A stretch of DNA of 64,000 nt, taken from Candidatus Azotimanducaceae bacterium. GTDB lineage: Bacteria; Pseudomonadota; Gammaproteobacteria; Pseudomonadales; Azotimanducaceae. Shown here piece after piece: positions 7,946-64,000 of the stretch (positions are counted from its first letter, which is position 1; every line of letters begins with the position of its first letter). The stretch spans positions 1,480,415-1,544,414 of the forward strand of contig OZ251530.1 of NCBI GenBank assembly GCA_965243095.1, read 5' to 3'. The notes under the pieces were generated by a model. It did no database searches. It saw only the letters and a program-made list of their open reading frames with translations, and was not told the origin of the DNA. The translations under genes were made by a program, and so were the position numbers.

Positions 7946-8107
7946 CCTTAGAGCTCCTCTCTAGTGCTGGTTTGGTCGCACGCGGCGCGCTCGCGCAGGC
8001 AACGTGGACGCGGCGCACTATACGCCAATTCGCGCAAAATCCATAGGCGCGAAAACGCCCGTTGGGAACGACGCGAGAAGCCACCGCCGAGTAGTAGGAT
8101 CCGCGCC

Positions 8108-10819
<2,712 letters not shown>

Positions 10820-32800: not shown

Positions 32801-32829
32801 GCGCGATCGCGGCGCCGCTGCACACTGAC

Positions 32830-35800
32830 ATGATCGCCGCCGTTGTTCGCTGGGCCATCGCCAATCGCCTGCTGGTGCTGGTGGGCGCCGTGTTGCTGAG
32901 CGTGTGGGGGGTGCGGTCGCTGTTGTCCACGCCGCTGGACGCGCTGCCGGATCTCTCCGATGTGCAGGTGATCGTGAAGACCACCTACCCCGGCCAAGCG
33001 CCGCGGCTGGTGGAGGATCAGGTCACCTATCCCATCGCCACGGCCATGCTGGCGGTGCCCGGCGCGGTGGCGGTGCGCGGTTATTCGTTCTTCGGCGATT
33101 CGTTCGTCTACGTGCTGTTCGACGACGCCACGGATCTGTATTGGGCGCGTTCGCGGGTGCTGGAGTATCTGAACCAGGTGGCGGCGCGGCTGCCGCCGGG
33201 GGTGCAGCCGGCGTTGGGGCCGGACGCCAGCGGCGTCGGCTGGGTGTTCGAGTACGCGCTGGTGGATCGCACCGGAACGCACGATCTGGCGCAGTTGCGC
33301 TCGTTGCAGGATTGGTTTCTGCGCTATGAACTGCAGGCGGTGCCGGGCGTCGCGGAGATCGCCACGGTGGGGGGCATGGTGCGGCAATACCAGGTGGTGG
33401 TGGACCCGGATCGGCTGAGCGCCTTCGGCCTGACGCTGGCGCAAGTGCGGCGCGCCATCGAACGCGGCAACCAGGAGGCCGGCGCTTCCGTGATCGAGAT
33501 CGCCGAAGCGGAATACATGGTGCGCACCACCGGCTATCTGCAAGGCTTGGACGACTTGGCGGCGGTGCCGCTGGGCGTCCACGAGGGCGGCGTGCCGATT
33601 CTGCTCTCCGACGTCGCCCGCCTGCGCGTGGGCCCGCAGATGCGGCGCGGCGTGGCGGATCTCGACGGCGAGGGCGAAGTGGTGGGCGGCATCGTGGTGA
33701 TGCGCAGCGGCGAAAACGCGCTGGCCACCATCGACGGCGTGAAGCAGCGGCTTACCGAACTCAAGAGCGGGCTGCCGGAGGGCGTGGAGGTGGTCACCGT
33801 GTACGACCGCTCGCAGCTCATCGAGCGGGCGGTGGACACGCTGCGCGACACGCTGACCGAGGAGCTGGCCATCGTCGCGCTGGTGTGCGCGGTGTTCCTG
33901 TTCCACCTGCGCTCGGCGCTAGTGGTGGTGCTGAGCCTGCCGGTGGCGGTGCTGGGCGCGTTCGTGGTCATGCGGGCGCAGGGCATCAACGCCAACATCA
34001 TGTCCCTGGGCGGCATCGCCATCGCCATCGGCGCGATGGTGGACGGCGCCATCGTGATGGTGGAGAACGGCCATCGGCGGCTGCGCGAGGCGGGCGCCCG
34101 CACGAGCGCGGAGCGCTGGCGCGTTGTCGGCGAGGCGGCGGGAGAGGTGGGCGCGCCGATCTTCTTCTCGCTGCTGATCATCACGCTGAGCTTTCTGCCG
34201 GTGTTCGCGCTGCAGGCGCAGGAGGGGCGGTTGTTCTCGCCGCTCGCGTTCACCAAAACCTACGCGATGGCCGCCGCGGCGATGCTCTCCATCACGCTGG
34301 TGCCGGTGCTGATGGGCTACTGCGTCCGCTCCCGCGCCGCCAAGCGCAACCCGGTGGAGCGGGCGTTGACCGCCGCCTACCAGCCGGCGCTCTCGCTGGT
34401 GTTGCGCCACCCGTGGTGGGTGCTGGGTGGCGCGGCGCTGCTGGTGACGGCCGGCGTCTGGCCGGCGCAGCGCCTCGGTTCGGAGTTCATGCCGCCGCTC
34501 AACGAGGGCGATTTGATGTACATGCCCACCACCTATCCGGGCATCTCCATCGACAAGGCGCGGGAGCTGCTGCAGCAAACGGACAAGCTCATCCGCACCG
34601 TGCCGGAAGTGCAGCGCGTGTTCGGCAAGATCGGCCGCGCCGAAACCGCCACGGACCCGGCGCCGCTGACGATGATCGAGACGATGATCCAATTGCGGCC
34701 GCAGGAGCAGTGGCGCCCGGGCGTCACGCTGGACGATTTGCGTGCCGAGCTGGACCGCAAGGTGCGCGTGCCCGGCCTCAACAACACGTGGACGATGCCC
34801 ATCAAGACGCGCACGGACATGCTGGCCACCGGCATCAAAACGCCGGTGGGCGTGAAGGTCACCGGCGCGGATCTGGCGGTGATCGAGCGCGTCGGCGAGG
34901 ACATCGCCGCGGTGCTGCGCGAACTGCCCGGCACTGCCTCCGTGCATGTCGAGCGGGTGGCCAGCGGCCGCTATGTGGAAGTGGACATCGACCGGCGGCG
35001 GGCGGCGCGCCACGGCCTCAACATCGCCGATGTGCAGGACATCGTGCGCACCGCGGTGGGCGGCGTGAACGTGACGCGCACCGTGGAGGGCTTGGAGCGC
35101 TATCCGGTGAACGTGCGCTATCCGCAGCGCGTGCGCGATTCGGTGGAGCGGCTGAAGCTGCTGCCGGTGATCACGCCGGCCGGCGCCCGCATCGCGCTGG
35201 CGGACGTGGCGGAGGTGCGCGTCACCGAAGGCCCGCCGATGATCAAGAGCGAGAACGGGCGCCCCACCGGGTGGCTGTTCGTGGATCTGGACGATGCGGA
35301 CATCGGCGGCTACGTGGCAGCGGCGCAGCAAGCGGTTGCGGAGGGGGTGAACTTGCCGGCCGGCTACGCCATCCGCTGGGCCGGGCAGTACGAATACCTG
35401 CTGCGCGCCCAAGAACGGCTGGCGCTGGTGGCGCCGCTGACGCTGCTGGTGATCGTGCTGCTGCTCTACTTCGCGTTGCGCCAAGCGGCTTCGGTGGTGA
35501 TCGTGTTGGTTTCGCTGCCGCTCGCCTTGGTGGGCGGGGCGTGGACGCTGTATCTCTTGGAGTATCAACTATCCGTGGCCGTTGGCGTGGGCTTCATCGC
35601 CTTGGCCGGCGTCGCAGTGGAACTCGGCGTGGTGATGGTGAGCTACCTGAACTTGGCGTTGCGCGACCGGCTCGCGCAGGCGAAGCGCGAAGGGCGGAGC
35701 GCGACCGCGGAAGACGTGTACCAAGCCGTGCTGGAGGGCGCCGGCCGCCGCATCCGCCCCATCGCCATGACCGCGGCCACGCTGGTGGCGGGCCTCGCGC

Positions 35801-35967
35801 CCATCATGCTCGGCGACGGCGCCGGGGCCGAAGTGATGCGGCGCATCGCCGCCCCGATGTTCGGCGGCGTCGTCGGCGTCGCCGTGCTGGCGCTCGCGGT
35901 GGTGCCGGCGCTGTTCCTCCTGTGGCATCGGAAGCGGGCCGTGGCCGCCCCATCAGCGGCGGCGTGA
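32830..35967 (+). CDS. CusA/CzcA-family heavy-metal efflux RND transporter
   Basis: 1045 aa from MIAAVVRWAIANRLLVLVG. HME-RND features run throughout (FGDSFVYVLFDD, GGIAIAIGAMVDGAIVMVEN, AGVAVELGVVMVSY). Confidence 0.95.
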   Translation: MIAAVVRWAIANRLLVLVGAVLLSVWGVRSLLSTPLDALPDLSDVQVIVKTTYPGQAPRLVEDQVTYPIATAMLAVPGAVAVRGYSFFGDSFVYVLFDDATDLYWARSRVLEYLNQVAARLPPGVQPALGPDASGVGWVFEYALVDRTGTHDLAQLRSLQDWFLRYELQAVPGVAEIATVGGMVRQYQVVVDPDRLSAFGLTLAQVRRAIERGNQEAGASVIEIAEAEYMVRTTGYLQGLDDLAAVPLGVHEGGVPILLSDVARLRVGPQMRRGVADLDGEGEVVGGIVVMRSGENALATIDGVKQRLTELKSGLPEGVEVVTVYDRSQLIERAVDTLRDTLTEELAIVALVCAVFLFHLRSALVVVLSLPVAVLGAFVVMRAQGINANIMSLGGIAIAIGAMVDGAIVMVENGHRRLREAGARTSAERWRVVGEAAGEVGAPIFFSLLIITLSFLPVFALQAQEGRLFSPLAFTKTYAMAAAAMLSITLVPVLMGYCVRSRAAKRNPVERALTAAYQPALSLVLRHPWWVLGGAALLVTAGVWPAQRLGSEFMPPLNEGDLMYMPTTYPGISIDKARELLQQTDKLIRTVPEVQRVFGKIGRAETATDPAPLTMIETMIQLRPQEQWRPGVTLDDLRAELDRKVRVPGLNNTWTMPIKTRTDMLATGIKTPVGVKVTGADLAVIERVGEDIAAVLRELPGTASVHVERVASGRYVEVDIDRRRAARHGLNIADVQDIVRTAVGGVNVTRTVEGLERYPVNVRYPQRVRDSVERLKLLPVITPAGARIALADVAEVRVTEGPPMIKSENGRPTGWLFVDLDDADIGGYVAAAQQAVAEGVNLPAGYAIRWAGQYEYLLRAQERLALVAPLTLLVIVLLLYFALRQAASVVIVLVSLPLALVGGAWTLYLLEYQLSVAVGVGFIALAGVAVELGVVMVSYLNLALRDRLAQAKREGRSATAEDVYQAVLEGAGRRIRPIAMTAATLVAGLAPIMLGDGAGAEVMRRIAAPMFGGVVGVAVLALAVVPALFLLWHRKRAVAAPSAAA

Positions 35968-39174: not shown

Positions 39175-39280
39175 ACCGCGGGCGAGACAGCCCGCTTAGA
39201 ACGTGGCAAAGCGCCCACCAAAACAAGTGCGCCAAGGCCGGGCTGAGCCTTGGCGCAACGCAAAACGCCAGGAGAAAATC

Positions 39281-39481
39281 ATGCCGAAGATGAAAACCAA
39301 CCGCGGCGCGGCGAAGCGATTCCGCCGCACCGCCAAGGGGTTCAAACACAAGCGCTCCAACAAGAGCCACATCCTCACCAAGATGGCACCCAAGCGCAAA
39401 CGGCGCCTCAAGGGGTTCAAGTCGCTTTCCGCGGCGGATGTGGCGGCGGTCAAGCAGATGGTGCCGAAGAAGGCGCGGTAG
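39281..39481 (+). CDS. rpmI: 50S ribosomal protein L35
   Basis: [39 protein letters not shown] lies 6 nt upstream. Confidence 0.95.
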
Positions 39482-39567
39482 TCGGGCCTTCGCTTTGAAT
39501 CGAGGCATAGCCTCGCCAACGCTTGATCATCACGCCGGCGCAAGCGCCGGCGACAAAGGAGCGAAAC

Positions 39568-39978
39568 ATGCCAAGGGCAAAGAACAGCGTCGCCACGCGG
39601 CGGCGCCGCAAGAAGGTCTTGAAGGCGGCGAAGGGCTACTACGGTGCCCGCAGCCGTTCCTTCAAGGTCGCCAAACAGGCGGTCATCAAGGCCGGGCAGT
39701 ACGCCTACCGGGACCGGCGCCAACGCAAGCGCCAATTCCGCGCCTTGTGGATTTTGCGCATCAACGCCGAGGCGCGCATGCACGGCCTTTCCTACAGCCG
39801 CTTCATGGCCGGCTTGAAGAAGGCCGACGTGTTGGTGGACCGGCGTGTGCTGGCGCACCTCGCGCTGAAGGAGAAGACCGCGTTCGCGGCGCTGGTGGCG
39901 AAAGCCAAGGCCGCGCTCGAACAGGCGGCGGCCGAACGGGAAGGCACCACCGGCGAACCGGCCGGCTCGCCGGCCTGA
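39568..39978 (+). CDS. rplT: 50S ribosomal protein L20
   Basis: [67 protein letters not shown]. Confidence 0.95.
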
Positions 39979-39990
39979 CCGCCGGCGGCG

Positions 39991-41043
39991 ATGAGCGCGG
40001 ACGGGGCGCGCCCCGAAACCATCGCGGACGCGACGGCGCGCATCGAGCAAGAGTGCCTCTTGGCGGTGGCCGAGGCGGCGGACGAACGCGCCGTGGACGC
40101 CGTGCGCGTTCGCTATCTCGGCAAGAAGGGCGAGATCACCGCCCTGCTCAAGGGCTTGCGGGAGGTGGCGGCGGAACAGCGGCCCGCAGCCGGGGCGCAT
40201 GTGAACGCGCTCAAGCAACGGCTGCAAGGCGCGGTTGAGGCGAAGCTGGCCGACATCCGCGCCGAGACATTGCGCCAAACGCTGGCCGCGGACGCCGTGG
40301 ATGTCACCTTGCCCGGGCGCCGTCGGCCGGGCGGCAGCCTGCATCCCGTCACGCAAACCTCCCGTCGCATCGCCGAGATCTTCGTCGCCGCCGGCTACGA
40401 GGTGGTGTCCGGCCCGGAGATCGAGGACGACTACCACAACTTCCAAGCGCTGAACATCGCCGCCGATCACCCCGCCCGCGCCATGCACGACACCCTGTAC
40501 TTGGACAACGGCCTGCTGCTGCGCACGCACACCTCGCCGGTGCAGATCCGCGTGCTGGAGGAGCGCCCGCCGCCCATCCGCGTGATCTGCCCGGGCCGCG
40601 TGTACCGCAAGGACGACATGGACGCCAGCCACAGCCCGATGTTCCACCAAGTCGAGGGCCTGGTGGTGGACGAGGGCATCGCCTTCGCGGACTTGAAAGG
40701 CACCGTGGTGGAGTTCGTGCGGCGCTTCTTCGAGCGCGATTTGGCGGTGCGGTTCCGCCCGTCGTACTTCCCCTTCACCGAGCCATCCGCCGAGGTGGAC
40801 GTGCAATGCGTCCACTGCGCCGGCGACGGCTGCCAGGCTTGCGGCCGCTCCGGCTGGACCGAGGTGATGGGCTGCGGCATGGTGCATCCGAACGTGCTGC
40901 AAATGGTGGATGTGGACACCGAGCGGTTCACCGGCTTCGCTTTCGGCTTCGGCGTGGATCGCTTCGCCACGTTGTTCTTCGCCATTGACGACATGCGCCT
41001 GCTGTTCGAGAACGACCTGCGCTTCCTCGGCCAATTCGCGTGA
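39991..41043 (+). CDS. pheS: phenylalanine--tRNA ligase alpha subunit
   Basis: Class II aaRS motifs ([37 protein letters not shown]). Canonical position after rplT. Confidence 0.95.
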
Positions 41044-41050
41044 GGCCGGC

Positions 41051-43489
41051 ATGAAATTCAGCGCCTCTTGGCTGCGGCAGTGGCTGCCGGGGGACGTGCC
41101 GGTCGAGCAAATGTGCGAGCAGCTCACCAACGCCGGCTTGGAAGTGGATGGCGTGGAGGTGGTGGCGCCCGCGTTCTCCGGCGTCGTGGTTGCGGAAGTG
41201 CGCGCGGTGCGCCCGCATCCGAACGCGGACAGGCTCTCGGTGTGCGACGTGGATGGCGGCGGCGAATCCGTTGAGGTGGTTTGCGGTGCGCCGAACGTGC
41301 GCCCGGGCCTGAAAACCGCGCTCGCCACCGTTGGGGCGAGACTGCCCGACGGCCCGGTGCGGGCCGCGAAACTGCGCGGCGTGATTTCGCGGGGAATGTT
41401 GTGCAGCGCCGCCGAACTGGGCCTCGGCACCGATCACGACGGCATCATGGAACTGGGCGACGCGCTTTTCGAGCGAACGCCGCGCCAGCTAGAGCCCGGC
41501 GCGAACTTGCGCGATGCGCTGCGCTTGGACGACGTCTGCGTCAACGTGGATCTCACCCCCAACCGCGGCGACTGCCTGAGCCTCCGCGGGCTGGCCCGCG
41601 AACTGGCGCTGTTGAACGATGTCGCGGCGGTGCCACCGAAGTGGCAAAAGGCGGCGTCCGACAGCGAGGCGGTTTTTCCCGTGCGCGTGGACAACCCCGT
41701 TGCCTGCCCGCGCTATCTCGGCCGCGTCATCGAGGACGTGGACCTCTCGCGTCCCACCCCGTTGTGGTTGCGCGAACGCCTGCGCCGCTCGGGGTTGCGC
41801 TCCATCGACCCGGCGGTGGACGTGACCAACTACGTGCTGCTCGAACTCGGTCAACCGATGCATGCCTTCGACCGCGACCAGCTGCAGGAAGGCATCGTGG
41901 TGCGCGACGCCGCCGCTGGCGAGACGCTCACCCTGCTCGATGGCCGCGAATTGCGCTTTGCCGACGACGCGCCGCTGCTCATCACGGATGGCGGCGGGCC
42001 GGTCGCTCTCGCCGGCGTGATGGGGGGCACTCGCAGCGGCGTCACCGCGCAGACGCGCAACCTGTTCTTGGAGTGTGCCTTCTTTTCGCCGCCGGCGGTG
42101 GCCGCCGCGGCCCGACGCTACGGCCTGCGCACGGACGCCTCGCATCGCTACGAGCGCGGCGTGGATTTTGCGCTGCCGTTCGACGCCATCGAACGCGCCA
42201 CACAGCTGCTGTTGGACATCGCAGGCGGACGCGCCGGCCCGGTTTCCGGCCCCACAAGCGACGAGGATCTGCCGCGCCGGGGCCGAATCCAGCTTCGCAA
42301 AGCGCGGTTGGACGCCTTGGTCGGCGAGGAATTGCCGCCCCAGCGCATCCAGCAGATCTTCGAGCGACTTGCGCTCGCGCCGTCGGTCAATGGCGAAGGC
42401 GCTGGCCGCGTCTGGACGGTCACCCCGCCGAGCCATCGTTTCGATCTGGCCATTGAGGAGGATTTGGTGGAAGAAGTGCTGCGCGTCCACGGCTACAACG
42501 CCGTCGCCAGCCGTCTTCCCCCGGCGCCCGTCCCCCTCGGCCGCGTCTCCGCCGAACAGCTGGCGCAGGAGCGGTTGGCGGACTTGCTGGTTGATCTCGG
42601 CTACAGCGAAGCGATCACCTACAGCTTCGTCGCCTCGGACAAGATGGCGGCGCTGGCGCCAAACGCCACTCCCCTCCGCGTCCGCAATCCGGTTTCCAGC
42701 GACCACGCCGTGATGCGCACGAACCTCCTGCCCGGCCTCTTGGACGCCCTCGGCAACAATCTGGCCCGGCAAGCGCGGCGTGTGCGCTTGTTCGAGATCG
42801 GCCAGTGTTTTCCGGGCGAACCTGCGAACGATGGCGATGCTCAGGCAGGCGAACGCACCGCCCCACCGCCGCAGCGGGTGCTGTGCGGCGGTGTGCTGTT
42901 CGGCGCCCGCGAAGAACACAGCTGGGCGCACGACGGTACTGCCACGGACTTCTTTGACGCCAAAGGCGATGTGGAGCGCCTGCTGGCCTTGGGCGGCGGC
43001 GATGTCGCGTTCGAGCCAACCGCAGACCCGGTGCTGCACCCGGGCCAAGCGGCCGCGGTGCGCGTGGGCACGGTTCACGTCGGCCGCGTCGGCCGCCTGC
43101 ATCCGCGTTTGGAGGCGGAGTTGGCGCTGCCGCCCGGCGTCTTCGTGTTCGAATTGCGCTTGGAAGCCGCGCTCGCCCTGCGCCCCCGCCGCCACGGCAT
43201 CGTGTCGCGGCAACCCGCGGTGCGGCGCGACCTCGCGCTGGTGTTGGCGAAGGACGTTCCGGCGGTGCGACTCGAATCCGTGGCGCGCAACACGCTGGGC
43301 GATGCCTTGACCCGCTTCGAGTTGTTCGACCTCTACACCGGCGAAGGCGTAGCCAACAACGAGAAGAGCGTCGCCGTCGGCTTGACCTTGCAGCATCCAT
43401 CGCGCACCCTTGCGGCGACCGACATCGATCGGCTCCTGCGCGGCGTGCTCGACGCCTACGCAAACGAGCTCGGCGCGCGCCTGCGCTGA
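41051..43489 (+). CDS. pheT: phenylalanine--tRNA ligase beta subunit
   Basis: [14 protein letters not shown]-terminus, tRNA-binding domain, B3/4 and B5 domains, and a C-terminal FDX-ACB domain. Confidence 0.95.
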
Positions 43490-43496
43490 CCGGTCG

Positions 43497-43835
43497 ATGC
43501 TGTGTGACGGAGGGCGGGTTTTGAGCGCATTGTCGAAAGCCCGAATGGCGGAGGCGCTTTGCGACGAGCTGGGTTTCAGCCGCCGCGAGGCCAAGGACAT
43601 CGTGGAGTCCTTCTTCGAGGAGATCAGCGTTTGCCTAACCCGCGGCGAAGCCGTCAAGTTGTCCGGCTTCGGCAACTTCGAACCCCGCGACAAGCCCCCG
43701 CGCCCGGGCCGCAACCCCCGAACGGGCGAGGACGTGCCCATCAAGGCGCGGCGCGTGGTGACCTTCCGCGCCAGCAAAAAACTGCGCACACACGTGGACA
43801 CGGGCGAGTTCCCGGACGCGCCTGAGCGGCGATGA
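43497..43835 (+). CDS. ihfA: integration host factor subunit alpha
   Basis: [32 protein letters not shown]...[39 protein letters not shown]. The start is ATG 43497 or TTG 43521. Confidence 0.9.
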
Positions 43836-43858
43836 ACAGCGTTTACTGAGGCGAAACA

Positions 43859-45094
43859 TTGAGAATCGCGATACTTGGGGGCGACGGCTTCGTTGGCTGG
43901 CCGACCACCCTGCATCTCTCCAGCATTGGCCACGAGGTGGCCATCGTGGACAACCTGAGCCGGCGCTGGATAGACGCCGAGCTGGGCGTGCAATCCCTCA
44001 CGCCCATGGACTCCATTCAAGAACGCCTCCGCATCTGGAAGGACGTGAGCGGCGCCACCCTCGCCTTCGAGCACATCGACGTCGCGGGCGAATACGAGCG
44101 CTTCAAGGCGTGGCTGGCCGATTGGCGTCCGCAAGCGGTGATCCATTTCGCCGAGCAGCGGGCGGCGCCATATTCGATGAAAAGCGACCGCCACAAAACC
44201 TACACCGTCCACAACAACGTCAACGCCACGCACAACCTGCTGAACGCGCTGGTGGCGACGGACACCGACGCCCACGTCGTACATCTCGGCACGATGGGGG
44301 TGTACGGCTACGCCACCGCCGGCGCGTCCATTCCGGAAGGCTACTTGACGGTGGACGTGGCGTTGGACGATGGCGGCAAGGCGGCGCGGGAGATTCTCCA
44401 CCCCACGGACGCCGGCAGCATCTATCACATGACGAAGTGCTTGGATCAACTGCTGTTTCAGTTCTACGCCAAGAACGACGGCCTGCGCATAACGGACTTG
44501 CACCAGGGCGTGGTTTGGGGCACGCACACCGCGCAAACCCGCCGCCACGAGCAACTGGTCAACCGCTTCGACTACGACGGCGACTACGGCACCGTGCTGA
44601 ATCGGTTTCTGATCCAAGCGGCGCTGCAGCATCCGCTCACGGTGCATGGCGTGGGCGGACAGAAACGCGCGTTCATCCACATTCAGGACTCCGTGCGCTG
44701 CGTGGAGCTCGCGCTCACGGACCTGCCGGCGGCCGGGGAGAAGCCGAAGATCTTCAACCAAATGACGGAAGTGCATCGCGTGCGCGACTTGGCGGAGTTG
44801 GTGAGCTCCCTCACCGGCGCGGAGATCGCGTTCCTGCCGAATCCGCGCAAGGAAGCGCCGGAGAACGAACTCTCGGTGCGCAATGACCAGTTCCTCGCCT
44901 TGGGCTTGGAACCCACGAAGCTGCGCGACGGACTGCTCACCGAACTGGTGGACGTGGCGCGCAAGTTCATCCACCGGGTGGACCGCTCGCGCATCCCCAG
45001 CACGTCGGCTTGGACGCGCGCCATCGCCGGTTCGCTGGTGACGGATGTGGAGCAGGGCCGCGCCTCGGCGCGGCAAAGCAACGGCGGGCGCTAG
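43859..45094 (+). CDS. sqdB: UDP-sulfoquinovose synthase
   Basis: Close to plant SQD1 along its length: ILGGDGFVGWPTTLHLS, VDNLSRRWIDAELGVQSLTPMDSIQERLRIW, HFAEQRAAPYSM, LGTMGVYGY, YHMTKCLD, TDLHQGVVWG. TTG start. Confidence 0.85.
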   Translation: MRIAILGGDGFVGWPTTLHLSSIGHEVAIVDNLSRRWIDAELGVQSLTPMDSIQERLRIWKDVSGATLAFEHIDVAGEYERFKAWLADWRPQAVIHFAEQRAAPYSMKSDRHKTYTVHNNVNATHNLLNALVATDTDAHVVHLGTMGVYGYATAGASIPEGYLTVDVALDDGGKAAREILHPTDAGSIYHMTKCLDQLLFQFYAKNDGLRITDLHQGVVWGTHTAQTRRHEQLVNRFDYDGDYGTVLNRFLIQAALQHPLTVHGVGGQKRAFIHIQDSVRCVELALTDLPAAGEKPKIFNQMTEVHRVRDLAELVSSLTGAEIAFLPNPRKEAPENELSVRNDQFLALGLEPTKLRDGLLTELVDVARKFIHRVDRSRIPSTSAWTRAIAGSLVTDVEQGRASARQSNGGR

Positions 45095-45150
45095 AAGCCT
45101 GGCTTTGGCGGTTTCGCCAATGCCTCCGCGTGTCCACGGCTTCCACACCA

Positions 45151-45942
45151 ATGGCGCAGTTCGCCTACGCAACGCTGGTCACCGGGCCGGACTACGCCAT
45201 CGGCGCGCTCGCCTTGGCGCGTTCGCTGCGCGCCGTGGGCAGCGAGTGGCCGCTGGTGGTGCTGTGTACCGCGGCCGCCGGCGAACTCGAAGAGCTCCGC
45301 GCCGCTGGCTGCCTAATCCGCCGGGTGGAACCGCCACCGCTTTCGCCGGGTTTCCTCGAACGCCACGAACGGGCGGCACTGCATCGCCGAGCGCCGTTCG
45401 ACAAGGGCGGCAAGCCGAGTTTTCATGTGCCGGTGGAGAACTTTTGCAAACTGGAGGTGTGGCGGCTGGTGGAATATCAGCGCGTCGTCTTTCTGGACGC
45501 CGACACGCTGGTGCTGCAGAACATCGACAAGCTGTTCGGCTATCCGCAGTTCAGCGCCGCGCCCAATTTGTACGAATCCCTGGCGGACATGCATCGGCTC
45601 AATTCCGGGGTCTTCGTGGCCGCGCCCTCGCAGGCCACTTGGCGCGCCATGCTGGAACGCTTGGACGCGCCGGACGCCTTTTGGCGACGCACCGACCAAA
45701 CTTTCCTAGAGCATTACTTCCCGGATTGGCACGGCCTGCCCTACACCTTCAACGCGCTGCAATACCTGTATTTCAATCTGCCCGCGCTGTGGCGTTGGTC
45801 GAGCATCAAGGTGGTGCATTACCAGTACGAGAAACCGTGGACGCCGAACCACGCGAAAGCCCACCTGCTGCGCCCGTTGATCGAGCTGTGGCAGACGGTT
45901 CTGCGCGACGGCGTCATTCCCGCGGACCTGCCGGCCCCGTGA
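45151..45942 (+). CDS. sqdD: glycosyltransferase family 8 (glycogenin-like; SqdD-like)
   Basis: FAYATLVTGPDYAIGALALARSL..., the DxD region VVFLDADTLVLQNIDKLF, and NSGVFV. It sits directly after sqdB, as in the Rhodobacter sqd operon. Confidence 0.7.
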   Translation: MAQFAYATLVTGPDYAIGALALARSLRAVGSEWPLVVLCTAAAGELEELRAAGCLIRRVEPPPLSPGFLERHERAALHRRAPFDKGGKPSFHVPVENFCKLEVWRLVEYQRVVFLDADTLVLQNIDKLFGYPQFSAAPNLYESLADMHRLNSGVFVAAPSQATWRAMLERLDAPDAFWRRTDQTFLEHYFPDWHGLPYTFNALQYLYFNLPALWRWSSIKVVHYQYEKPWTPNHAKAHLLRPLIELWQTVLRDGVIPADLPAP

Positions 45943-57008: not shown

Positions 57009-60000
57009 TTACGGCCTTGCGGTGGCGGAGAGATTGGCGAGGTGCCCGGCGGGGCTCTCCATCAAGCTCATGACGGTGAGCGGGTTGTCGAAGGAAACGG
57101 TCAGGCGCCACTGGCCCTCGCCATCGCCGAGCGCGCCTTCGAGACTCTCGTCGCCGGCTTCGAGTTGCGCCGCGGTGAGAGTCAGCGCCTCGCCGGCCGG
57201 CACCATGACGGTTAGCGGCCCCGCCTCCGCGCCAGCGTCGTCCACGCCGTTGATCGTCGCCGTCGCCGCATCCGCGCCGTTGTTCGCTAGGCGCAGGAGG
57301 CTCCCTTGTTGTTCGTTCGACGCCGGGTGGAACACCGCCACGCGCGCGGCGCCATCCGCAGCTGGTGCCACTTCGTGCAGACTGGCCACGAAGCCGTCCG
57401 CGTGGCGTACATAGGCCGCCGCGGCGAGTGAGAGGGTGCCGCTTCGCAGTTCCAAGCGCCACGCGCCCTTCGTCGGCGCGCCGACGCCGGACGCCAAGCC
57501 CTTCTTGGCGTTGCCGTTCTCCAAGTCGTCCGAGTTGAAGTGCATTGTCGCCCGCGCCGCAAGCTGTAGCTGGATCGGGCCGGCGCGGACGCCGGCGTCG
57601 TCCACCGCCGAAATCTCCACCATGCCTTCGGCCGCGGTCATGTTCGCCACGCGGGCGAAGCCCTCGCGGCCGGCCGGGTTCATCGCCGACGGGAACAGTG
57701 GCAGGCGCAGCGTCTCGCCCGCGGCCGCGCGCAGCGGCGGCGGCGACAGGTTCGAGAGGTGTCCGCTCGGGCTCGCCAGCCACGAGGACGCCGACAGCGG
57801 CCACGGCGCGTGTACGCGCAAGCGCCACTTGCCGGCGCCGTTGCCGAGTCCCGCGCCGGCGGCGCCCCGCGACCGCTCCAACTGCCCCGCCGTCAATGCC
57901 AGCGTCGCGCCCGCCGGCGCCTCGAAGCCGGGCGCGAAGCGCCCGCGGCCGGCGTCGTCCACGCCCCACACGGACATCCTCGCGGAAGCGGGGACCGGGT
58001 TGAAGACGCGCAGCGAACTGCGTTGGGCGCGGTTGCTCGCCGGGTTGAAGAGGAACGCGGAAAGCGAGTCGCCCGCGCGCGGCAACGCGCCGTGCAACGG
58101 GGTGAGGAATCCGTCCGGCGTGCGGACGTAGGCCAGAACCTCGATGTCGAGCGGGGACCACAGATGCAGCCGCCAGCTGCCCGCCATCGGCGGGCCGACG
58201 CCGTCCATCAGCCCCATCTCGGCGTTGCCGTTCTCCAAGTCCGCCGAGTCGAAGCTCGCCGCCGCGCCGGCGGCCAGCGAAAGCGCCGCCGGGCCGAACG
58301 TCTGCCCGGCCTCGTCCACGGCCTCCACCAGCACCGCGCCATCCATGTCCGATCGGTTCAGCACGCGCACCACGCCGCTCCGCCCGGAAGCGTCCGCCGC
58401 GGAGGGAAACAACGGCACGGCCCAGCCGAACACCACCGTGGCGCCGGCATCGCGCAGCGCCGGAATGTGCGTGTCCAGCGCCGCCGCGCCCAGCGGATTG
58501 CCGCGCAGGCCCAGCGCGCCGCCATCCGCAAGCCCCGGGTGCCCGGCCAGCCCCGACACGTCCGCCAGCCGGTTCCAGCCCAGGCGCAGCCACGACAGCC
58601 GCGTCAGCCCGCGCAGCGGCGAAGCGTCCGCGATGCGGTTGCGCGACAGGTCCAGCCGCGTCAGCGCCCGCAATCCCGCCAGCGCCGAGACGTCGGCCAC
58701 CATGTTGTTCGGCAGCCACAGCCGTCGCAGCTTCGAGAGCCCCGCCAGCGGCGAGATGTCCGCGATGCGGTTGTCGCCCAGATGCAGGTAGATCAGCGAG
58801 TTCAAGCCCGACAGCGCCGAGATGTCCGACAGGCCGTTGCCGTCCAGCCACAGTTGCTCCAAGGACGACAGGCCCGACAGCGGCGACAGGTCGCGCACCG
58901 CCGTGCCGCTCAGCAGCAGCGTCCGCAGGCTGGTCAGCCCCGCCAGCGGCGAGAGGTCCAGCGGCTCGCCTCCGGCCGCCGGCGCGTTGCCGCCCAAGGA
59001 CAGCGACTCCAGCGACACCGCCTGCTCCAGACCCGCCAGCGACGAGATCCCCGCGCCGTCCAGGTTCAGCGTCCGCGCCGCCTGAATGTCCAATATCCTC
59101 AGCGTTCCCGGCTGCTTGCCCAGCGCCCGTTCCACGGCGGCCGTCAGCGCCGGGTCCGGCAGCGAGAACAGCCCGCCAACCACCGGTATGGTTGTCCATG
59201 TCGTCAGGTCGATGCCGCCCGCGTGCGCGGCGGTCAGCACCCGCACCGCGTAGTCTTGGGTGGCGGGCAGTTCGCCCCCGGACAAGGCGATCGTCAGGGT
59301 GGCCGTCGTGCCGCCGGCGACGGCGCCCGCCACGTTGGCGACGGACAGGCCCGGCGTCGCCGGCACCAGCGCGAAGCTGTCCGCGGCGACGCCGCTTGCG
59401 AAGGTGGTTCCGGTCAACGAGACGGCGATCGTCGCGCCGTCCAGGTTCCGCTCGGTGAGGGAAGAGGGATTCACGGACGAGATGGCCACACCGCTGCCCA
59501 GAACCCTGTGGCGCGGGTAGTCCGTGGGCAGGTCTCGGATCGCGTGGTGGTCGTCGACATGGGGGAGATTGGGGTCTTGAAGCTGTCCACCGTGCAACCT
59601 GCCGATGCTCAACCCGTCGGCGTCGGCGTCGTCCTGCCCAACCGTATAGGTGAAGGGTATGGTCCAGCGGTAGGCATTGAAGTTGTCCGGGCAGCTCATC
59701 TGCCTGGTGGCCCCGCCAATCAGCAACTCCAGCCTAAGAGTGTTGGTAGGCCAATGGGTGGCTGAACAGGTTCGGTTGTCGATGACACGTATGCTGAAAG
59801 TCAGGGTGACCGTGATGGTCTCGCCCTGCACGAAGGTGTCGCCGTTCGCAGGGTCGCTCACCGTCATGGTGGCGATGCGGGGGTTGCCTCCGTGGTGGGC
59901 CGCGGCCTGCCCCGCGCCGAGCGCCGCAAGCGCGGCCAAGAGCAAGGCGGCGAGGCGCGGAACCGCGCCATCGCGGCGCCCGCGGATGGCGCCCGCAGCG

Positions 60001-60069
60001 CAGGTCAGCAACATGGCAAGCACCGAGCGCCGCGCACACGCGGGGGGGGGGGGGGGTGGAATCACGCAT
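57009..60069 (-). CDS. large secreted LRR protein, paralog 1; SD-proximal ATG is out of frame with the body at the sequenced C15 tract length (candidate phase-OFF)
   Basis: GGAGGAG (60077-60083), 7 nt, then ATG 60069 encoding MRDST, then C15. The long ORF (track 57009..60107, TTG) is in the -1 register relative to this ATG. With C14 or C17 it would read MRDSTPPPPACARRSVLAMLLTCAAG... The body has Ig-like N-terminal domains, ~9 internalin-type 22-aa LRRs, and four ~115-aa C-terminal modules. An in-frame ATG at 60014 downstream of the tract is an alternative start. Confidence 0.75.
60042..60056 (-). repeat. homopolymeric tract, 15 G on + strand (C15 in the coding sense of paralog 1)
   Basis: Counted directly: c + 9 g (60041-60050), then 6 g (60051-60056). 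Consistent with the IPPPPPPA translation in the track ORF. Confidence 0.95.
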
Positions 60070-60109
60070 ACGCTTTCTCCTCCGTCATGCCCAGCAACAC
60101 CCAGCAAAC

Positions 60110-60132
60110 GCGCTCAGCACGGTGCTGAGCGC
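60110..60132. promoter_or_regulatory. 11-1-11 perfect palindrome in the paralog-1 upstream region (operator-like or hairpin)
   Basis: GCGCTCAGCAC-G-GTGCTGAGCGC, located between the conserved GGTTGACC..GGGTAATATG block and the SD of paralog 1. A degenerate copy lies at 63418-63440 upstream of paralog 2. Confidence 0.35.
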
Positions 60133-60185
60133 AATGGCTTGCCCGGCATATTACCCCTTTTCGGTCAACCGTGCGGCCGCAACGA

Positions 60186-60264
60186 CCTTGGGAGCGCGAG
60201 CGTCTCGCCGCGCTCTCGTTCACATGTATTTCACCGAGAGTGCGGGAGGCGCCTGCGCTCCCAG
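60186..60264. repeat. second REP/BIME-like inverted repeat pair, same family as 35976-36054
   Basis: CCTTGGGAGCGCGAGCGTCTCGCC (60186-60209) and the inverted copy at 60241-60264 (reverse complement CCTGGGAGCGCAGGCGCCTCCCGCA). The pair begins 7 nt downstream of the paralog-2 stop (60271). Confidence 0.5.
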
Positions 60265-60270
60265 GACGGC

Positions 60271-63200
60271 TTACGGTCTTGCGGTGGCGGAGAGGTTGGA
60301 GAGGTGGCCGGCGGGGCTTTCCAGCAGGCTCATGACCGTGAGCGGGTTGTCGAACGCCACCGTCAAGCGCCACTTGCCGTCGCCGTCGCCCAGCGCGCCT
60401 TCCAAGCCTTCGCCGCCGTCTTCGAGTTGCGCGGCGGTGAGCGTCAGCGCTTCGCCTGCGGGCACGGTGGCGGTTAACGGTTCCGACGTCGCGCCGGCGT
60501 CGTCCACCCCGGTGATGGTCGCCATCGCCGGCTCGTCGCCGTTGTTCGCCAAGCGCAGGAGGCTGCGCTGCCCGTCGCTGGACGCCGGGTGGAACACGGC
60601 CACCCGCGCCGCGCCGTCGGCAACCGGGGCCGTCTCGTGCAGGCTGGTCACGAAGCCGTCGGCGTGGCGGGTGTAGGTTGCGGCGGCGAGTGTGAGGGTG
60701 CCGCTTTGCAGTTCCAGCCGCCACGCGCCCTTCGTCGGCGCGCCAACGCCGGACGCCAAGCCCTTCGCGGCGTTGCCGTTCTCCAAATCCTCCGAGTTGA
60801 AGTGCATCGTCGCCCGCGCCGCAAGCTGGAGCTGGATCGGGCCGGCGCGGACGCCGGCGTCGTCCACCGCCGAAATCTCTACCATGCCTTCCGCCGCGGT
60901 CATGTTCGCCACGCGGGCGAAGCCCTCGCGGCCGGCCGGGTTCATCGCCGACGGGAACATTGGCAGCCGCAGCGTCTCGTCCGCGGCCGCGCGCAGCGGC
61001 GGAGCCGACAGGTTCGAGAGATGCCCGCTCGGGCTTTCCAGCCACGAGGACGCCGACAGCGGCCAGGTTGCGTGTACGCGCAGGCGCCACTTGCCGGCGC
61101 CGTTGCCGAGACCCGCGCCGACGGCGCCCCGCGACCGCTCCAACTGCCCCGCCGTCAACGCCAGCGGGGCGTTCGCGGGCGCCTCAAAGCCGGGCGCGAA
61201 GCGCCCGCGGCCGGCGTCGTCCACGCCCCACACCGACATCCTCGTGGAAGCGGGGACCGGGTTGAAGACGCGCAGCGAACTGCGTTGGGCGCGGTTGCTC
61301 GCCGGGTTGAAGAGGAACGCCGAAAGCGAGTCGCCCGCGCGCGGCAACTCGCCGTGCGCCGGGGTCAGGAATCCGTCCGGTGTGCGGACGTAGGCCAGAA
61401 CCTCGATGTCCAGCGCCGACCACACATGCAGCCGCCAGCTGCCCGCCATCGGCGGGCCGACGCCGTCCGTCAGCCCCATCTCGGCGTTGCCGTTCTCCAA
61501 GTCCGCCGAGTCGAACTGCGCCGCCGCGCCGGCGGCCAGCGGAAGCGACACCGGGCCGACTGTTCGGCCGGCCTCGTCCACGGCCTCCATCAACACCGCG
61601 CCGTCCATGTCCGTGCGGTTCAAGACGCGCACGACGCCGCCGCGCCCGGATGCGTCCGCGGCCGAGGGGAACAGCGGCACGGCCCAGCCGAACACCACCG
61701 CCGCGCCGGCCTCGCGCAGCGCCGGAATGTGCGTGTCCAGCGCCGCCGCGCCCAGCGGATTCCCGCGCAGCCCCAACGCGCCGCCGTCCGCGAGCCCGCG
61801 GTGGCCGGCCAACCCCGACACGTCCGCCAGCCGATTCCAGCCGAGGCGCAGCCACGAGAGCCGCGTCAACCCGCGCAGCGGCGAGGCGTCGGCGACGCGG
61901 TTGCGCGACAGGTCCAGCCGCGTCAGCGCTCGCAGCCCCGCCAGCGCCGAGACGTCGGCCACCATGTTGCCGGGCAGCCACAGCCGCCGCAGCTTCGAGA
62001 GCCCCGCCAGCGCCGAGAGGTCCGCGATGCGGTTGTCCCCCAGATGCAGGTAGATCAGCGAGCCAAGCGCCGACAGCGTCGAGATGTCCGACAGGCCGTT
62101 GCCGTCCAGCCACAACTGTTCCAAGGACGACAGGCCCGACAGCGGCGACAGGTCGCGCACCGCCGTGCCGCTCAGCAGCAGCGTCCGCAGGCTGGTCAGC
62201 CCCGCCAGCGGCGAGAGGTCCAGCGGCTCGCCTCCGGCCGCCGGCGCGTTGCCGCCCAGGGACAGCGATTCCAGCGACACCGCCTCCTCCAGACCCGCCA
62301 GCGACGAGATCCCCGCGCCGTCCAGGTTCAGCGTCCGCAACGCCGGCATGTCCACTAGCCTCAGCGTTCCCGGCTGCTTGCCCAGCGCCCGCTCCACGGC
62401 GGCCGTCAGCGCCGGCTCCCCCAGCGAGAACGTGCCGCCAACCACCGGTATGGTCGTCCACGTCGTCAGGTCGATGCCGCCGGCGTGCGCGGCGGTCGGC
62501 ACCCGCACCGCGAAGGCGTAGCTGGCGGGCAGTTCGCCGCCGGCGTGGGCGAGCGTCAGCGTGGCCGTCGTGCCGCCGGAGGCGGCGCCGGCCACGTTGG
62601 CGATGGACAGGCCCGGAACCGGCGGCACCAGCGCGAAGCTGGCCGCGGTGACGCCGCTTGCGAAGGTGGTGTCCGTCAACGAGAGGGCGATCGTCGCGCC
62701 GTCCACGTTCCGCTCGGTGAGGGAAGAGGGATTCACGGCCGAGATGGCGATGGCGCTGCCGGCGACCTTGTGGTTCGGCGAGTTCTGGATACGCGGTAGG
62801 CTGCCGTAGTCTACCGGGTTCCCGGAGCCGCCGTTATCGGCGTTGGGGAAAATAGTTCCACCGTGCAACCTGCTGATGCTCAACCCGTCGGCGTCGGCGT
62901 CATCCTGCCCAACCGTATAAGTAAAGGGTATGTTCGAGCGGACCCAATTGCCGTTGGTCTGGCATCTCATTTGCCTGGTGGCCCCGCCAATTAGCAACTC
63001 CAACTGCACAATGCCGAGGCCGGACCAGCTCGTTTGACACGTGTTGTTGTCCCTGAGAGGTTCACTGAAGTGCAAGGTGGCCGTGATGGTCTCGCCCTGC
63101 ACGAAGGTGTCGCCCGTCGCCGGGTTGTTCAGCGTGATGCGGGTTATGGTGGGCGGGATCAATTGGGCCGCGGCTTGCCCCGCGCCGAGCGCGGTAAGCG

Positions 63201-63387
63201 CGGCCAAGAGCAAGGCGGCGAGGCGCGGAACCGCGCCATCGCGGCACCCGCGGATGGCGCCCGCAGCGCAGGTCAGCAGCGCGGCAAACGACCAGTGCCG
63301 ACGGCGGAACTCGATGCGATGGCGCAACCGATCAGACATGGGATCGGCCCCGCCGCCGTGGGGGGGGGGGGGGGTGGAATCGTCCAT
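60271..63387 (-). CDS. large secreted LRR protein, paralog 2; SD-proximal ATG in frame through the C15 tract (candidate phase-ON)
   Basis: GGAGGAG (63396-63402), 8 nt, then ATG 63387 encoding MDDSTPPPPHGGGADPMSDRL..., in frame with the whole 1038-aa body. It has the same architecture as paralog 1. The LRR and C-terminal modules are >90% identical by eye, while the N-terminal Ig-like region is divergent. Confidence 0.85.
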   Translation of the reverse strand: MDDSTPPPPHGGGADPMSDRLRHRIEFRRRHWSFAALLTCAAGAIRGCRDGAVPRLAALLLAALTALGAGQAAAQLIPPTITRITLNNPATGDTFVQGETITATLHFSEPLRDNNTCQTSWSGLGIVQLELLIGGATRQMRCQTNGNWVRSNIPFTYTVGQDDADADGLSISRLHGGTIFPNADNGGSGNPVDYGSLPRIQNSPNHKVAGSAIAISAVNPSSLTERNVDGATIALSLTDTTFASGVTAASFALVPPVPGLSIANVAGAASGGTTATLTLAHAGGELPASYAFAVRVPTAAHAGGIDLTTWTTIPVVGGTFSLGEPALTAAVERALGKQPGTLRLVDMPALRTLNLDGAGISSLAGLEEAVSLESLSLGGNAPAAGGEPLDLSPLAGLTSLRTLLLSGTAVRDLSPLSGLSSLEQLWLDGNGLSDISTLSALGSLIYLHLGDNRIADLSALAGLSKLRRLWLPGNMVADVSALAGLRALTRLDLSRNRVADASPLRGLTRLSWLRLGWNRLADVSGLAGHRGLADGGALGLRGNPLGAAALDTHIPALREAGAAVVFGWAVPLFPSAADASGRGGVVRVLNRTDMDGAVLMEAVDEAGRTVGPVSLPLAAGAAAQFDSADLENGNAEMGLTDGVGPPMAGSWRLHVWSALDIEVLAYVRTPDGFLTPAHGELPRAGDSLSAFLFNPASNRAQRSSLRVFNPVPASTRMSVWGVDDAGRGRFAPGFEAPANAPLALTAGQLERSRGAVGAGLGNGAGKWRLRVHATWPLSASSWLESPSGHLSNLSAPPLRAAADETLRLPMFPSAMNPAGREGFARVANMTAAEGMVEISAVDDAGVRAGPIQLQLAARATMHFNSEDLENGNAAKGLASGVGAPTKGAWRLELQSGTLTLAAATYTRHADGFVTSLHETAPVADGAARVAVFHPASSDGQRSLLRLANNGDEPAMATITGVDDAGATSEPLTATVPAGEALTLTAAQLEDGGEGLEGALGDGDGKWRLTVAFDNPLTVMSLLESPAGHLSNLSATARP
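63360..63374 (-). repeat. homopolymeric tract, 15 G on + strand (C15 in the coding sense of paralog 2)
   Basis: Counted directly: g at 63360, 10 g (63361-63370), then 4 g (63371-63374). Consistent with STPPPPH in the ORF translation. Confidence 0.95.
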
Positions 63388-63484
63388 TACGCTTTCTCCT
63401 CCATCATGCCCAGCAACGCGCCCAGCGCGTGGCTGAGCGCAAGCCCTACCCGCCATATTACCCTTTTTTCGGGTCAACCGCACG

Positions 63485-64000
63485 CTAGCGCAGCACCAGG
63501 CGGGCGTTGCGTGGCTGTACCGGGCGGTTGTTCGGGCCGCGCAGCGCATCCGCAAAGGCCGCCATCTGCTCGCTTGATGCCGATGTCGGCGCCTTCATCA
63601 CCAGCCAGATCACGCCTTCCGTGCAGGGCGGCGTGGTGAGGGAGCCGTTGAAGCGGTAGTAGTCGCGGGCTTCGGGCAGCAGGGCCGCCGGATCGATGGG
63701 CGCGGCGAAGACGTGCTCTGCGCCGGTGCCCGGCATGTGCCGCCACGACTGCGCCAAAGCGGCGTTGTGTTCGCCGGCCGCGAACATCACCGCGATCACG
63801 GCCAGACCGCCGTCGGGGCCGACGTGGACGAAGTGGACTTCCATCGGGAACTCGACGCCTTCGATGCGGTTCTCGCTCGGCGCGTGGAAGTGGAATTGCA
63901 GCAGGCGATAGACGCGCCCGTCGAGGGTGATCTCGCTGCCGTCGCCGCTTTCGACCTGAACCGTGTGGCCGTTGTTGACGATCGCCGTGCCGCTCCGGGC
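63485..64000 (-). CDS. alpha-class carbonic anhydrase (partial; 5' end beyond window)
   Basis: Manual translation to the window edge gives ..NNGHTVQVESG..YRLLQFHFHAPSENRIEGVEFPMEVHFVH..YYRFNGSLTTPPCTEGVIWLV..NNRPVQPRNARLV, the canonical alpha-CA zinc-ligand and active-site motifs. Confidence 0.85.
   Translation of the reverse strand, partial: ARSGTAIVNNGHTVQVESGDGSEITLDGRVYRLLQFHFHAPSENRIEGVEFPMEVHFVHVGPDGGLAVIAVMFAAGEHNAALAQSWRHMPGTGAEHVFAAPIDPAALLPEARDYYRFNGSLTTPPCTEGVIWLVMKAPTSASSEQMAAFADALRGPNNRPVQPRNARLVLR

Follow-up and report, generated by a model that had tools for sequence, protein, structure and literature searches.

What does a run of 15 C residues do when it lies only a few codons inside a gene, and does the output of the gene depend on the length of the run? 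The question is raised by a 64,000-nucleotide (nt) stretch of the genome of Candidatus Azotimanducaceae bacterium (contig OZ251530.1, positions 1,480,415 to 1,544,414; hereafter the window), in which two tandem genes for leucine-rich repeat (LRR) proteins, paralogue 2 and, directly downstream of it, paralogue 1, each carry such a run close to the 5′ end. An earlier reading of the letters of this DNA (the original prediction) took the two tracts to be phase-variable and the two genes to be in opposite expression states. Having compared the tracts with those at related loci, we propose that the C15 tract of paralogue 2 is probably a contingency (simple-sequence-repeat) switch that would act by slipped-strand phase variation, with translation initiating upstream of it at ATG 63387.

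Poly-C tracts at the 5′ ends of two LRR genes

Window positions are numbered on the forward strand, and both paralogues and their tracts are read on the minus strand. The 5′ end of paralogue 2 is composed as follows.

63402-63396, minus strand: Shine-Dalgarno (SD) sequence GGAGGAG, with an 8-nt spacer to ATG 63387
63387-63385, minus strand: upstream ATG, the proposed true initiation codon, opening the pre-tract leader M-D-D-S-T
63374-63360, minus strand (G15 on the plus strand): C15 tract, the presumed hypermutable element, encoding part of T-P-P-P-P
63339-63337, minus strand: downstream in-frame ATG (MSDRL...), 20 nt past the tract, with only a weak GGCGGGG upstream of it
60271-63387, minus strand: open reading frame (ORF) of paralogue 2, 1038 amino acids (aa), with its stop at 60271

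The sequence, translation and coordinates given in the original prediction proved correct, in that the SD sequence, the ATG, the C15 tract and the in-frame ORF of 1038 aa are all present on the minus strand. Between ATG 63387 and the tract lies GACGATTCCA (GAC GAT TCC A), and the tract begins 13 nt past the ATG; on its 3′ side the sequence continues as ACGGCGGCGGGG..., i.e. ACGGCGGCGGGGCCGATCCC up to the second in-frame ATG at 63339, which is a possible alternative start or re-initiation site. Translation from ATG 63387 yields MDDSTPPPPHGGGADPMSDRLRHRIEFRRRHWSFAALLTCAAG..., and the candidate N-terminal peptides are MDDSTPPPPHGGG... from the upstream start versus (M)SDRLRH... from the downstream one. 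The duplex of the SD sequence with the 3′ end of 16S rRNA has a calculated energy of −9.3 kcal/mol at the upstream ATG versus −5.6 kcal/mol before ATG 63339.

The tracts are exceptional within the window. There are just two C/G runs of 10 or more in its 64 kb, both of them C15 and both on the minus strand (63360-63374 and 60042-60056), and apart from these the window is without a C/G run of 7 or more. Overlapping matches to C10 number 12 where 0.36 are expected, a count that was reached by none of 100 shuffles.

Paralogue 1 has the same arrangement with a different outcome.

60083-60077, minus strand: SD sequence GGAGGAG, with a 7-nt spacer to the ATG at 60069-60067 and a duplex energy of −9.5 kcal/mol
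60056-60042, minus strand: C15 tract, in frame only at n = 11, 14 or 17
57009-60014, minus strand: main ORF, 1001 aa from ATG 60014, which has no SD sequence before it
59734-60069, minus strand: out-of-frame product of the SD-backed ATG at C15, 111 codons and a stop, crossing ATG 60014

The two proteins are 84% identical and the two genes have the same leader, with CGTGATTCCA (GATTCCA) between ATG 60069 and the tract of paralogue 1. Paralogue 2, however, has about 50 extra nt right after the tract that are absent from paralogue 1, and because the post-tract sequences differ in this way the same C15 places the two genes in different registers, as originally predicted. By the assembled lengths paralogue 2 is ON and paralogue 1 is OFF, an assignment that agrees with the prediction and hangs on the exact length of the homopolymer in the consensus. 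The further claim that a single-nucleotide slip would change the state was borne out when the tracts were edited in silico: paralogue 2 is fused to its upstream ATG at C12, C15 and C18, and paralogue 1 at C11, C14 and C17. A slip of −1 would therefore turn paralogue 1 ON, and any slip of ±1 would take paralogue 2 out of frame. Simulated C14 and C16 tracts in paralogue 2 give products of 37 and 18 aa, and at C13, C16 and C19 the upstream ORF stops 5 nt past ATG 63339.

RNA structure in the leaders found no support. Neither leader folds more stably than shuffled sequences do (z = +0.28 and −0.66), for which reason a structured riboregulator, or a poly-C segment that sequesters the SD sequence, was dropped as a candidate, and an Rfam scan of the window returned no known RNA family.

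Tract length and reading frame at related loci

The comparison covered the window together with the loci L009, L010 and L012-L017, about 230 kb in all, from three other ENA assemblies (ERZ23496419, ERZ23495725 and ERZ26050434). There are several prominent features. First, 13 C/G runs, of C12 to C28, are present in these 230 kb, where every other C/G run is shorter than 7; each of the 13 is on the coding strand and heads an LRR-family gene at its 5′ end. Outside the window the lengths are C13 in L009, C23, C23, C22 and C26 in L010, C28 in L012, C14 in both L013 and L014, C19 twice in L015, and C12 in L016. Second, L010, which belongs to a sister genome, is syntenic with the window, with the gene order LRR, carbonic anhydrase (CA), LRR, CA, LRR, LRR, inositol phosphatase, HAD, HSP15 and gyrA; the GyrA proteins of the two are 97% identical, and the four LRR genes of the L010 cluster are in mixed frames. 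Third, the tract changes where its surroundings do not. Paralogue 2 and its counterpart in L009 have flanks that are 96–98% identical with C15 and C13 respectively, and paralogue 2 and the third LRR gene of L010 (L010c) are 98.7% identical, without gaps, over the 300 nt downstream of tracts of C15 and C22. Near-identical flanks around C13, C15 and C22 identify the tract as the hypervariable part. A comparison of tract lengths among orthologues was among the checks attached to the original prediction, and these differences in length, together with the mixed frames, are what phase variation predicts.

The position of the tract relative to the translation signals is constant. At all 13 loci an SD sequence, an ATG and 2–8 further sense codons precede it, and this layout is shared by otherwise unrelated leaders (MDDST-, MRDST-, MHMT-, MAMT-, MKIIT-, MKTGSIA-, MMRIVMREI- and MKV-). 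The SD sequence GGAGGAG is kept at each of the seven loci with the MDDST-like leader, which are those of the CA clusters. Calculated duplex energies fall between −8.8 and −9.5 kcal/mol for the upstream ATGs at 11 of the 13 loci, versus −3.0 to −5.6 kcal/mol for the downstream ATGs (+1.2 kcal/mol for the MTGR type), most of which have no SD sequence. L016 is an exception, with a better SD sequence at its downstream ATG (−7.1 kcal/mol, versus −5.6 upstream), and L014 has no downstream ATG. The original prediction had allowed that ATG 63339 might be the real start, leaving the tract in the 5′ untranslated region. This holds to the extent that the signal peptides of several paralogues begin at that position, and loses ground in that the strong SD sequence always lies upstream of the tract and the downstream ATGs are mostly without one.

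Relative to the SD-backed ATG, the gene body is fused at five of the 13 loci (paralogue 2 among them) and is not fused at eight. In three of the latter the upstream frame stops 1–7 nt past the downstream ATG, and in the other five, including paralogue 1, it reads well past the downstream ATG out of frame. This near-even 5/3/5 spread is expected from rapid, unselected switching, and also from ±1 noise in the consensus; it is not expected from a constitutive coding tract. All of the non-fused copies keep ORFs of about 1000 codons, with ratios of nonsynonymous to synonymous substitution (dN/dS) of 0.30–0.54, and the ratio is 0.38 for paralogue 1 and the L012 gene, a pair in which both are OFF. 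Since their ORFs are intact and their dN/dS values are those of purifying selection, the non-fused copies are not pseudogenes.

Two relatives lack a long tract altogether and have the upstream ATG in frame: in P0022 (L016) the tract is deleted from a homologous leader, and in P0025 (L017) it is reduced to C6. Distant homologues in other taxa, at 43% identity or less, have no C/G run longer than 7, and judged from these sequences the tract device is specific to this lineage. A search of metagenome contigs with the leader motif GCATGRYGGAGGAGAAARCGTA gave a single chance match, in an unrelated coding region (L011).

A further shared element lies upstream of the SD sequence.

63479-63454, minus strand: promoter-like motif GGTTGACCCGAAAAAAGGGTAATATG, i.e. 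GGTTGACC-N-GGGTAATATG, with a leader of about 50 nt between it and the SD sequence

The hexamers within it, TTGACC (63477-63472) and TAATAT (63460-63455), resemble −35 and −10 elements and are separated by a non-canonical spacer of 11 nt. In the general form GGTTGACC-N(8-11)-GTAATATG, the motif is found about 80–115 nt upstream of the tract in both window paralogues (63454-63479 and 60147-60170, minus strand), in L009, at four sites in L010, and in L012 at about 5495, where it is kept although upstream identity around it has fallen to about 52%. We rejected TTGACC...TAATAT as a sigma-70 promoter, its spacer of only 9–11 nt being far too short. Phase variation through promoter spacing, of the fim or opc type, was likewise discarded: the tract lies 3′ of the SD sequence and the ATG, and the promoter-like hexamers are 80–115 nt upstream of it.

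Proposed frame switching and other readings of the tract

In the switch that we propose, translation would start at the SD-backed ATG 63387 and continue through four more sense codons, the tract then being read as Thr-Pro(n), and the ribosome would reach the signal peptide and the LRR protein only if the tract length were a multiple of three. During replication, slippage of the polymerase on the C:G run would add or remove one C at high frequency and so bring the SD-backed ATG into or out of register with the body of 1000 codons. Paralogue 1 would work in the same way in another register, a dozen or more other members of the family in the genome would have tracts of their own, and a clonal population would keep giving rise to cells that differ in which of these secreted or surface internalin-like LRR proteins they make. 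The original prediction had the two tracts giving four combinatorial states, a figure that is understated: in a homologue search, 14 or more members of the family come from the 4.8-Mb contig that encodes P0001, the protein identical to that of paralogue 2, with a comparable set on a 3.37-Mb contig of a different assembly, and poly-Pro N-termini are found in two or more other proteins of the window's own genome, among them P0010 and P0015. Three elements of this account are inferred: initiation at ATG 63387, frequent and reversible switching in vivo, and the export of the proteins together with their interaction with a host (probably a sponge), with phages or with predators. Several of the properties by which contingency loci are recognized are found here: a repeat long enough to be hypermutable (a G/C homopolymer of about 8 or more) lies inside the ORF past its proposed start, its length differs between orthologues with conserved flanks, and the out-of-frame alleles are intact.

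Several observations sit less comfortably with this proposal. The ON and OFF labels are provisional, resting on consensus homopolymer lengths of 15–28 that are possibly off by one; the source is a consensus assembly of a probably heterogeneous population, and variation in tract length within a population is the mark of active switching. If paralogue 2 starts at its upstream ATG, the N-region before the hydrophobic core is about 54 aa, which is unusually long, and in several paralogues (those beginning MTGR..., MSGRRG... and, in P0011, MSDRL...) a textbook signal peptide begins precisely with the downstream ATG. Among the fused loci, the segment from the tract to that ATG is translated in different frames (HGGGADP versus TAAGPIP), which indicates that this stretch is not under constraint at the protein level. 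Much of what the leaders of the seven CA-cluster loci have in common could be due to recent duplication or gene conversion and not to selection. Finally, a consensus scan for a sigma-70 promoter across 59900-63700 found none, and no transcription start could be placed.

Some of these points would be accommodated if the genes start at the downstream ATGs (63339 and 60014) and the SD-ATG-poly-C segment is a short upstream ORF, an arrangement that we regard as unlikely. Expression would still be phase-variable, as a three-state rheostat instead of a simple frame switch: a stop just past the start would allow coupling or re-initiation (ON), out-of-frame reading across the start would occlude it (OFF), and fusion would give an extended isoform. 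Besides the canonical signal peptides of the MTGR, MSGRRG and P0011-type members and the better downstream SD sequence of L016 (−7.1 versus −5.6 kcal/mol), this arrangement draws on the geometry of the stops, because in one of the two non-fused frames the upstream ORF ends 1–7 nt past the downstream ATG in every subfamily (as ATGA, ATGTCTGA or ATGTTGCTGA), and three loci (L010 at 9959, L010 at 13415 and L016 at 3938) are in exactly that state. Of the 78 ordinary genes examined at the compared loci, however, 47% also have an off-frame stop within −2 to +7 of the start, so the coupling geometry is not distinctive and is not evidence by itself. Most downstream ATGs moreover have no SD sequence, L014 has no downstream ATG, and the relatives without a tract keep the upstream ATG in frame. 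It is similarly doubtful that the family as a whole of at least 14 genes acts as a stochastic repertoire generator with three outputs, namely an extended fusion, a native pre-protein made by termination and re-initiation, and silence; if true, sponge symbionts would have their first described contingency-locus system, with a graded and not a binary switch. The constant placing of the strong SD sequence upstream of the tract and the in-frame upstream ATG of the tract-less relatives favour initiation upstream, and hence point to a true frame switch.

Two other explanations do away with translational switching. Under a static one, either paralogue 1 is a decaying frameshifted copy and paralogue 2 a normal oligoproline gene, or the lengths are artefacts of assembly or polishing and every gene is really in frame. 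The organisms are uncultured and represented by consensus assemblies, every platform is prone to errors in long homopolymers, and the coincidence that both window tracts are exactly C15 could come from polishing. Yet a tract occupies the same position in independent assemblies (the window, ERZ23496419, ERZ23495725 and two contigs of ERZ26050434); the lengths run from 12 to 28, far beyond errors of ±1; the OFF copies are free of stops over about 1000 codons with dN/dS of 0.3–0.5; and the frames are spread over three registers (5/3/5) and are not all in frame. We consider a static state very improbable. A role at the level of DNA or transcription, in which the G15–G28 of the template strand acts as a G-quadruplex or R-loop, or as a recombination site that drives gene conversion in the manner of the Neisseria pilE G-quadruplex, we rate as highly unlikely. 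G15 is just long enough for an intramolecular G-quadruplex of three tetrads, the 5′ ends are plainly mosaic (some have the MSDRL module right after the tract and others lack it, and subfamilies have signal-peptide-like segments in common), and genes for YhgA/Rpn-like nucleases (PF04754) adjoin several of the LRR loci. Against this, a translational switch accounts for the constant SD-ATG and for the in-frame state of the relatives without a tract, neither of which a G-quadruplex would require, and the leader RNAs fold no better than shuffled ones.

The proposed frame switch has well-known counterparts. Campylobacter jejuni has poly-G contingency loci, and in Bordetella pertussis fim2 and fim3 and Neisseria opc and porA, poly-C tracts of about 13–15 nt in the promoter spacer switch surface structures as their length varies. 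The fim, opc and porA tracts lie between promoter elements and act on transcription, whereas the tracts described here are 3′ of the SD sequence and the ATG, where a spacing logic is inapplicable. In Listeria monocytogenes, a 5′ homopolymeric tract is reported to inactivate the LRR gene inlA reversibly, at about 1000 times the rate of point mutation (Orsi, Bowen & Wiedmann 2010, PMC2831843). The likeness is that a homopolymer lies a few codons past the start of a secreted or surface internalin-type LRR gene, and that a slip of ±1 decides between a truncated peptide of a few aa and the full-length protein (PMC2831843). Here the tract is a poly(C) of 12–28 nt and not a short poly(A), the organism is a high-GC (guanine plus cytosine) Gram-negative, a multigene family is concerned instead of one gene, and the proteins have no LPXTG wall anchor and a different C-terminal architecture. 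Poly-C tracts within the coding sequences of Neisseria meningitidis nalP and mspA are reported to make NalP and MspA phase-variable (PMC3723659, PMC5084427). The Neisseria loci, and with them those of Campylobacter, resemble ours in having a 5′ intragenic G/C homopolymer, in encoding surface or secreted proteins, and in the combinatorial slipped-strand phase variation of many loci. They differ in that their tracts are typically of 7–14 nt in unrelated genes, whereas ours reach 22–28 nt within one paralogous family that shares the SD-ATG-tract layout, and in that ours belong to an uncultured organism whose switching is proposed from sequence. By analogy, the closest single counterpart is the 5′ poly(A) of inlA, and the closest at the genome scale are the poly-C/G loci of Neisseria and Campylobacter. 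The mechanism proposed is that of a classical contingency locus; what is new is the setting, the restriction to one large paralogous family and the tracts of up to 28 nt.

Protein products, setting and neighbouring genes

A protein identical to that of paralogue 2 (P0001, 1038 aa) is present in public collections, called from ATG 63387 on a contig of 4,807,997 bp. It is laid out as a leader, a long N-region, a signal-peptide-like segment, immunoglobulin (Ig)-like N-terminal domains, an LRR block at about residues 330–550, and four beta-sandwich domains.

63166-63225, minus strand: signal-peptide-like segment RLAALLLAALTALGAGQAAA, residues 55–74, as read from the translation and from family N-termini

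A second signal-like stretch, RRRHWSFAALLTCAAGA, precedes RLAALLLAALTALGAGQAAA in paralogue 2 and looks like a vestigial signal peptide. A lipoprotein reading of LLTC|AAG was rejected, given that Thr at −1 misfits the generally known lipobox consensus. The LRR block scores 91.2 bits for LRR_4 and 52.4 bits for LRR_8 (Pfam gathering cut-off 27 for each), which places it among LRR domains, and among PDB sequences it matches internalin A with E = 3e-62. LRR_4 and LRR_8 repeats are present in both paralogues. Scores against the NCBIfam models for class 1 internalins are far below their cut-offs (NF033188, 123.6 bits against 1050; NF033189, 94.1 bits against 1600), the match being confined to the LRR block. 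The protein is thus LRR-domain-containing and internalin-like, and is not an internalin. Its C-terminal part of about 470 aa (60274-61692, minus strand; residues ~566–1038) has no Pfam or PDB sequence match and consists of two units of about 240 aa, each ending in a conserved SP(S/A)GHLSNLS. AlphaFold models one unit (60973-61692) as two beta-sandwich domains with a predicted local distance difference test (pLDDT) score of 93, and the best structural match at the domain level is the Anabaena sensory rhodopsin transducer 2ii7 (target-normalised TM-score, TMt, 0.65–0.75, root-mean-square deviation about 3.2 Å, about 20% identity). Some homologues (e.g. P0056) begin directly with the beta-sandwich C-terminal domain.

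Across the family the N-terminal domains vary (Ig-like, Calx-beta, NHL, fn3), and gene callers place the starts of family members at three different positions. Two classes can be told apart among the called N-termini: 10 of 123 contain an oligoproline (MDDSTPPPPP..., MMRIVMREIPPPPPP... and others), and the rest begin at a downstream Met (MSDRL..., MLLTCAAG... and MTGR...). This is the pattern expected if 5′ poly-C tracts head many members in varying frames. The 5′ ends of the two paralogues are also mosaic (63226-63339 versus 59980-60041, minus strand), with a module of about 50 nt, MSDRLRHRIEFRRRHW..., after the tract in paralogue 2 only; SFAALLTCAAGA is the signal-peptide core in P0011 and P0028-P0030 and lies upstream of the second signal-like segment in paralogue 2. 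The sharing of these segments suggests recombination or gene conversion among paralogue 5′ ends.

The organism has a GC content of 68–70% and a GyrA that is 74–76% identical to those of named metagenome-assembled genomes (MAGs) of Gammaproteobacteria and Pseudomonadales. It is probably a sponge-associated symbiont; two related contigs come from samples coded PANK22-1, which are probably the sponge metagenomes of Pankey et al. 2022. Secreted eukaryotic-like LRR proteins are thought to mediate recognition between symbiont and host in sponges, and like the eukaryotic-like proteins of sponge symbionts (LRR, ANK, TPR, fn3, NHL) the family described here is a large, expanded set of secreted repeat proteins, in which LRRs are combined with Calx-beta, NHL or fn3 domains. 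To our knowledge, homopolymer phase variation is textbook material for a handful of cultured pathogens and has received little attention in uncultured, host-associated bacteria of the environment with a high GC content, and in the literature on sponge symbionts we found no report of it for such proteins. In the present case an entire expanded family of secreted LRR proteins appears to carry the switch, with tracts of up to 28 nt. If the switching is real, a symbiont population would be a mosaic of LRR-expression types, which bears on the evasion of host phagocytosis or of phages; gene callers would systematically mis-start or truncate such genes, and the consensus sequence of a MAG would be no guide to their ON or OFF state.

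Directly upstream of paralogue 2 the window ends within a CA gene.

63485-64000, minus strand: 3′ part of an alpha-carbonic anhydrase gene (PF00194), with its stop codon at 63487-63485

CA genes of this alpha ("eukaryotic") type are interleaved with LRR paralogues in L010 (5114-5818 and 9103-9852) and in L009 (658-1362) as well, and it looks as if a CA-plus-LRR unit has been duplicated as a cassette. Genes with PF04754 (Transposase_31, YhgA/Rpn-like recombination-promoting nucleases) adjoin LRR paralogues of the sister genome in L010 (555-1535), L014 (2306-3394 and 21829-22875) and L016 (8833-9759), and may be linked to rearrangement of the LRR family. Toxin-antitoxin or abortive-infection modules (AbiEii/AbiEi, DUF433 with PIN, PhdYeFM with PIN) flank LRR genes of the sister genome in L015 (13526-15495 and 21144-21803) and L016 (20804-21453). 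An LRR/NHL/Calx-beta gene of L015 (15775-21056) is called as two overlapping ORFs of 1209 and 564 aa, which suggests an internal frameshift or an assembly error away from the 5′ tract. Elsewhere in the window, three ORFs of 744–1227 aa (41489-45172, 16939-20400 and 39196-41430, minus strand) have no Pfam match and are overlapped by long ORFs of the other strand; rather than genes, they are probably antisense artefacts of a kind typical of DNA with 68% GC. Genes near them encode an AcrB-family pump (31930-35967, plus strand) and a pyruvate phosphate dikinase-like enzyme (7964-10819, plus strand).

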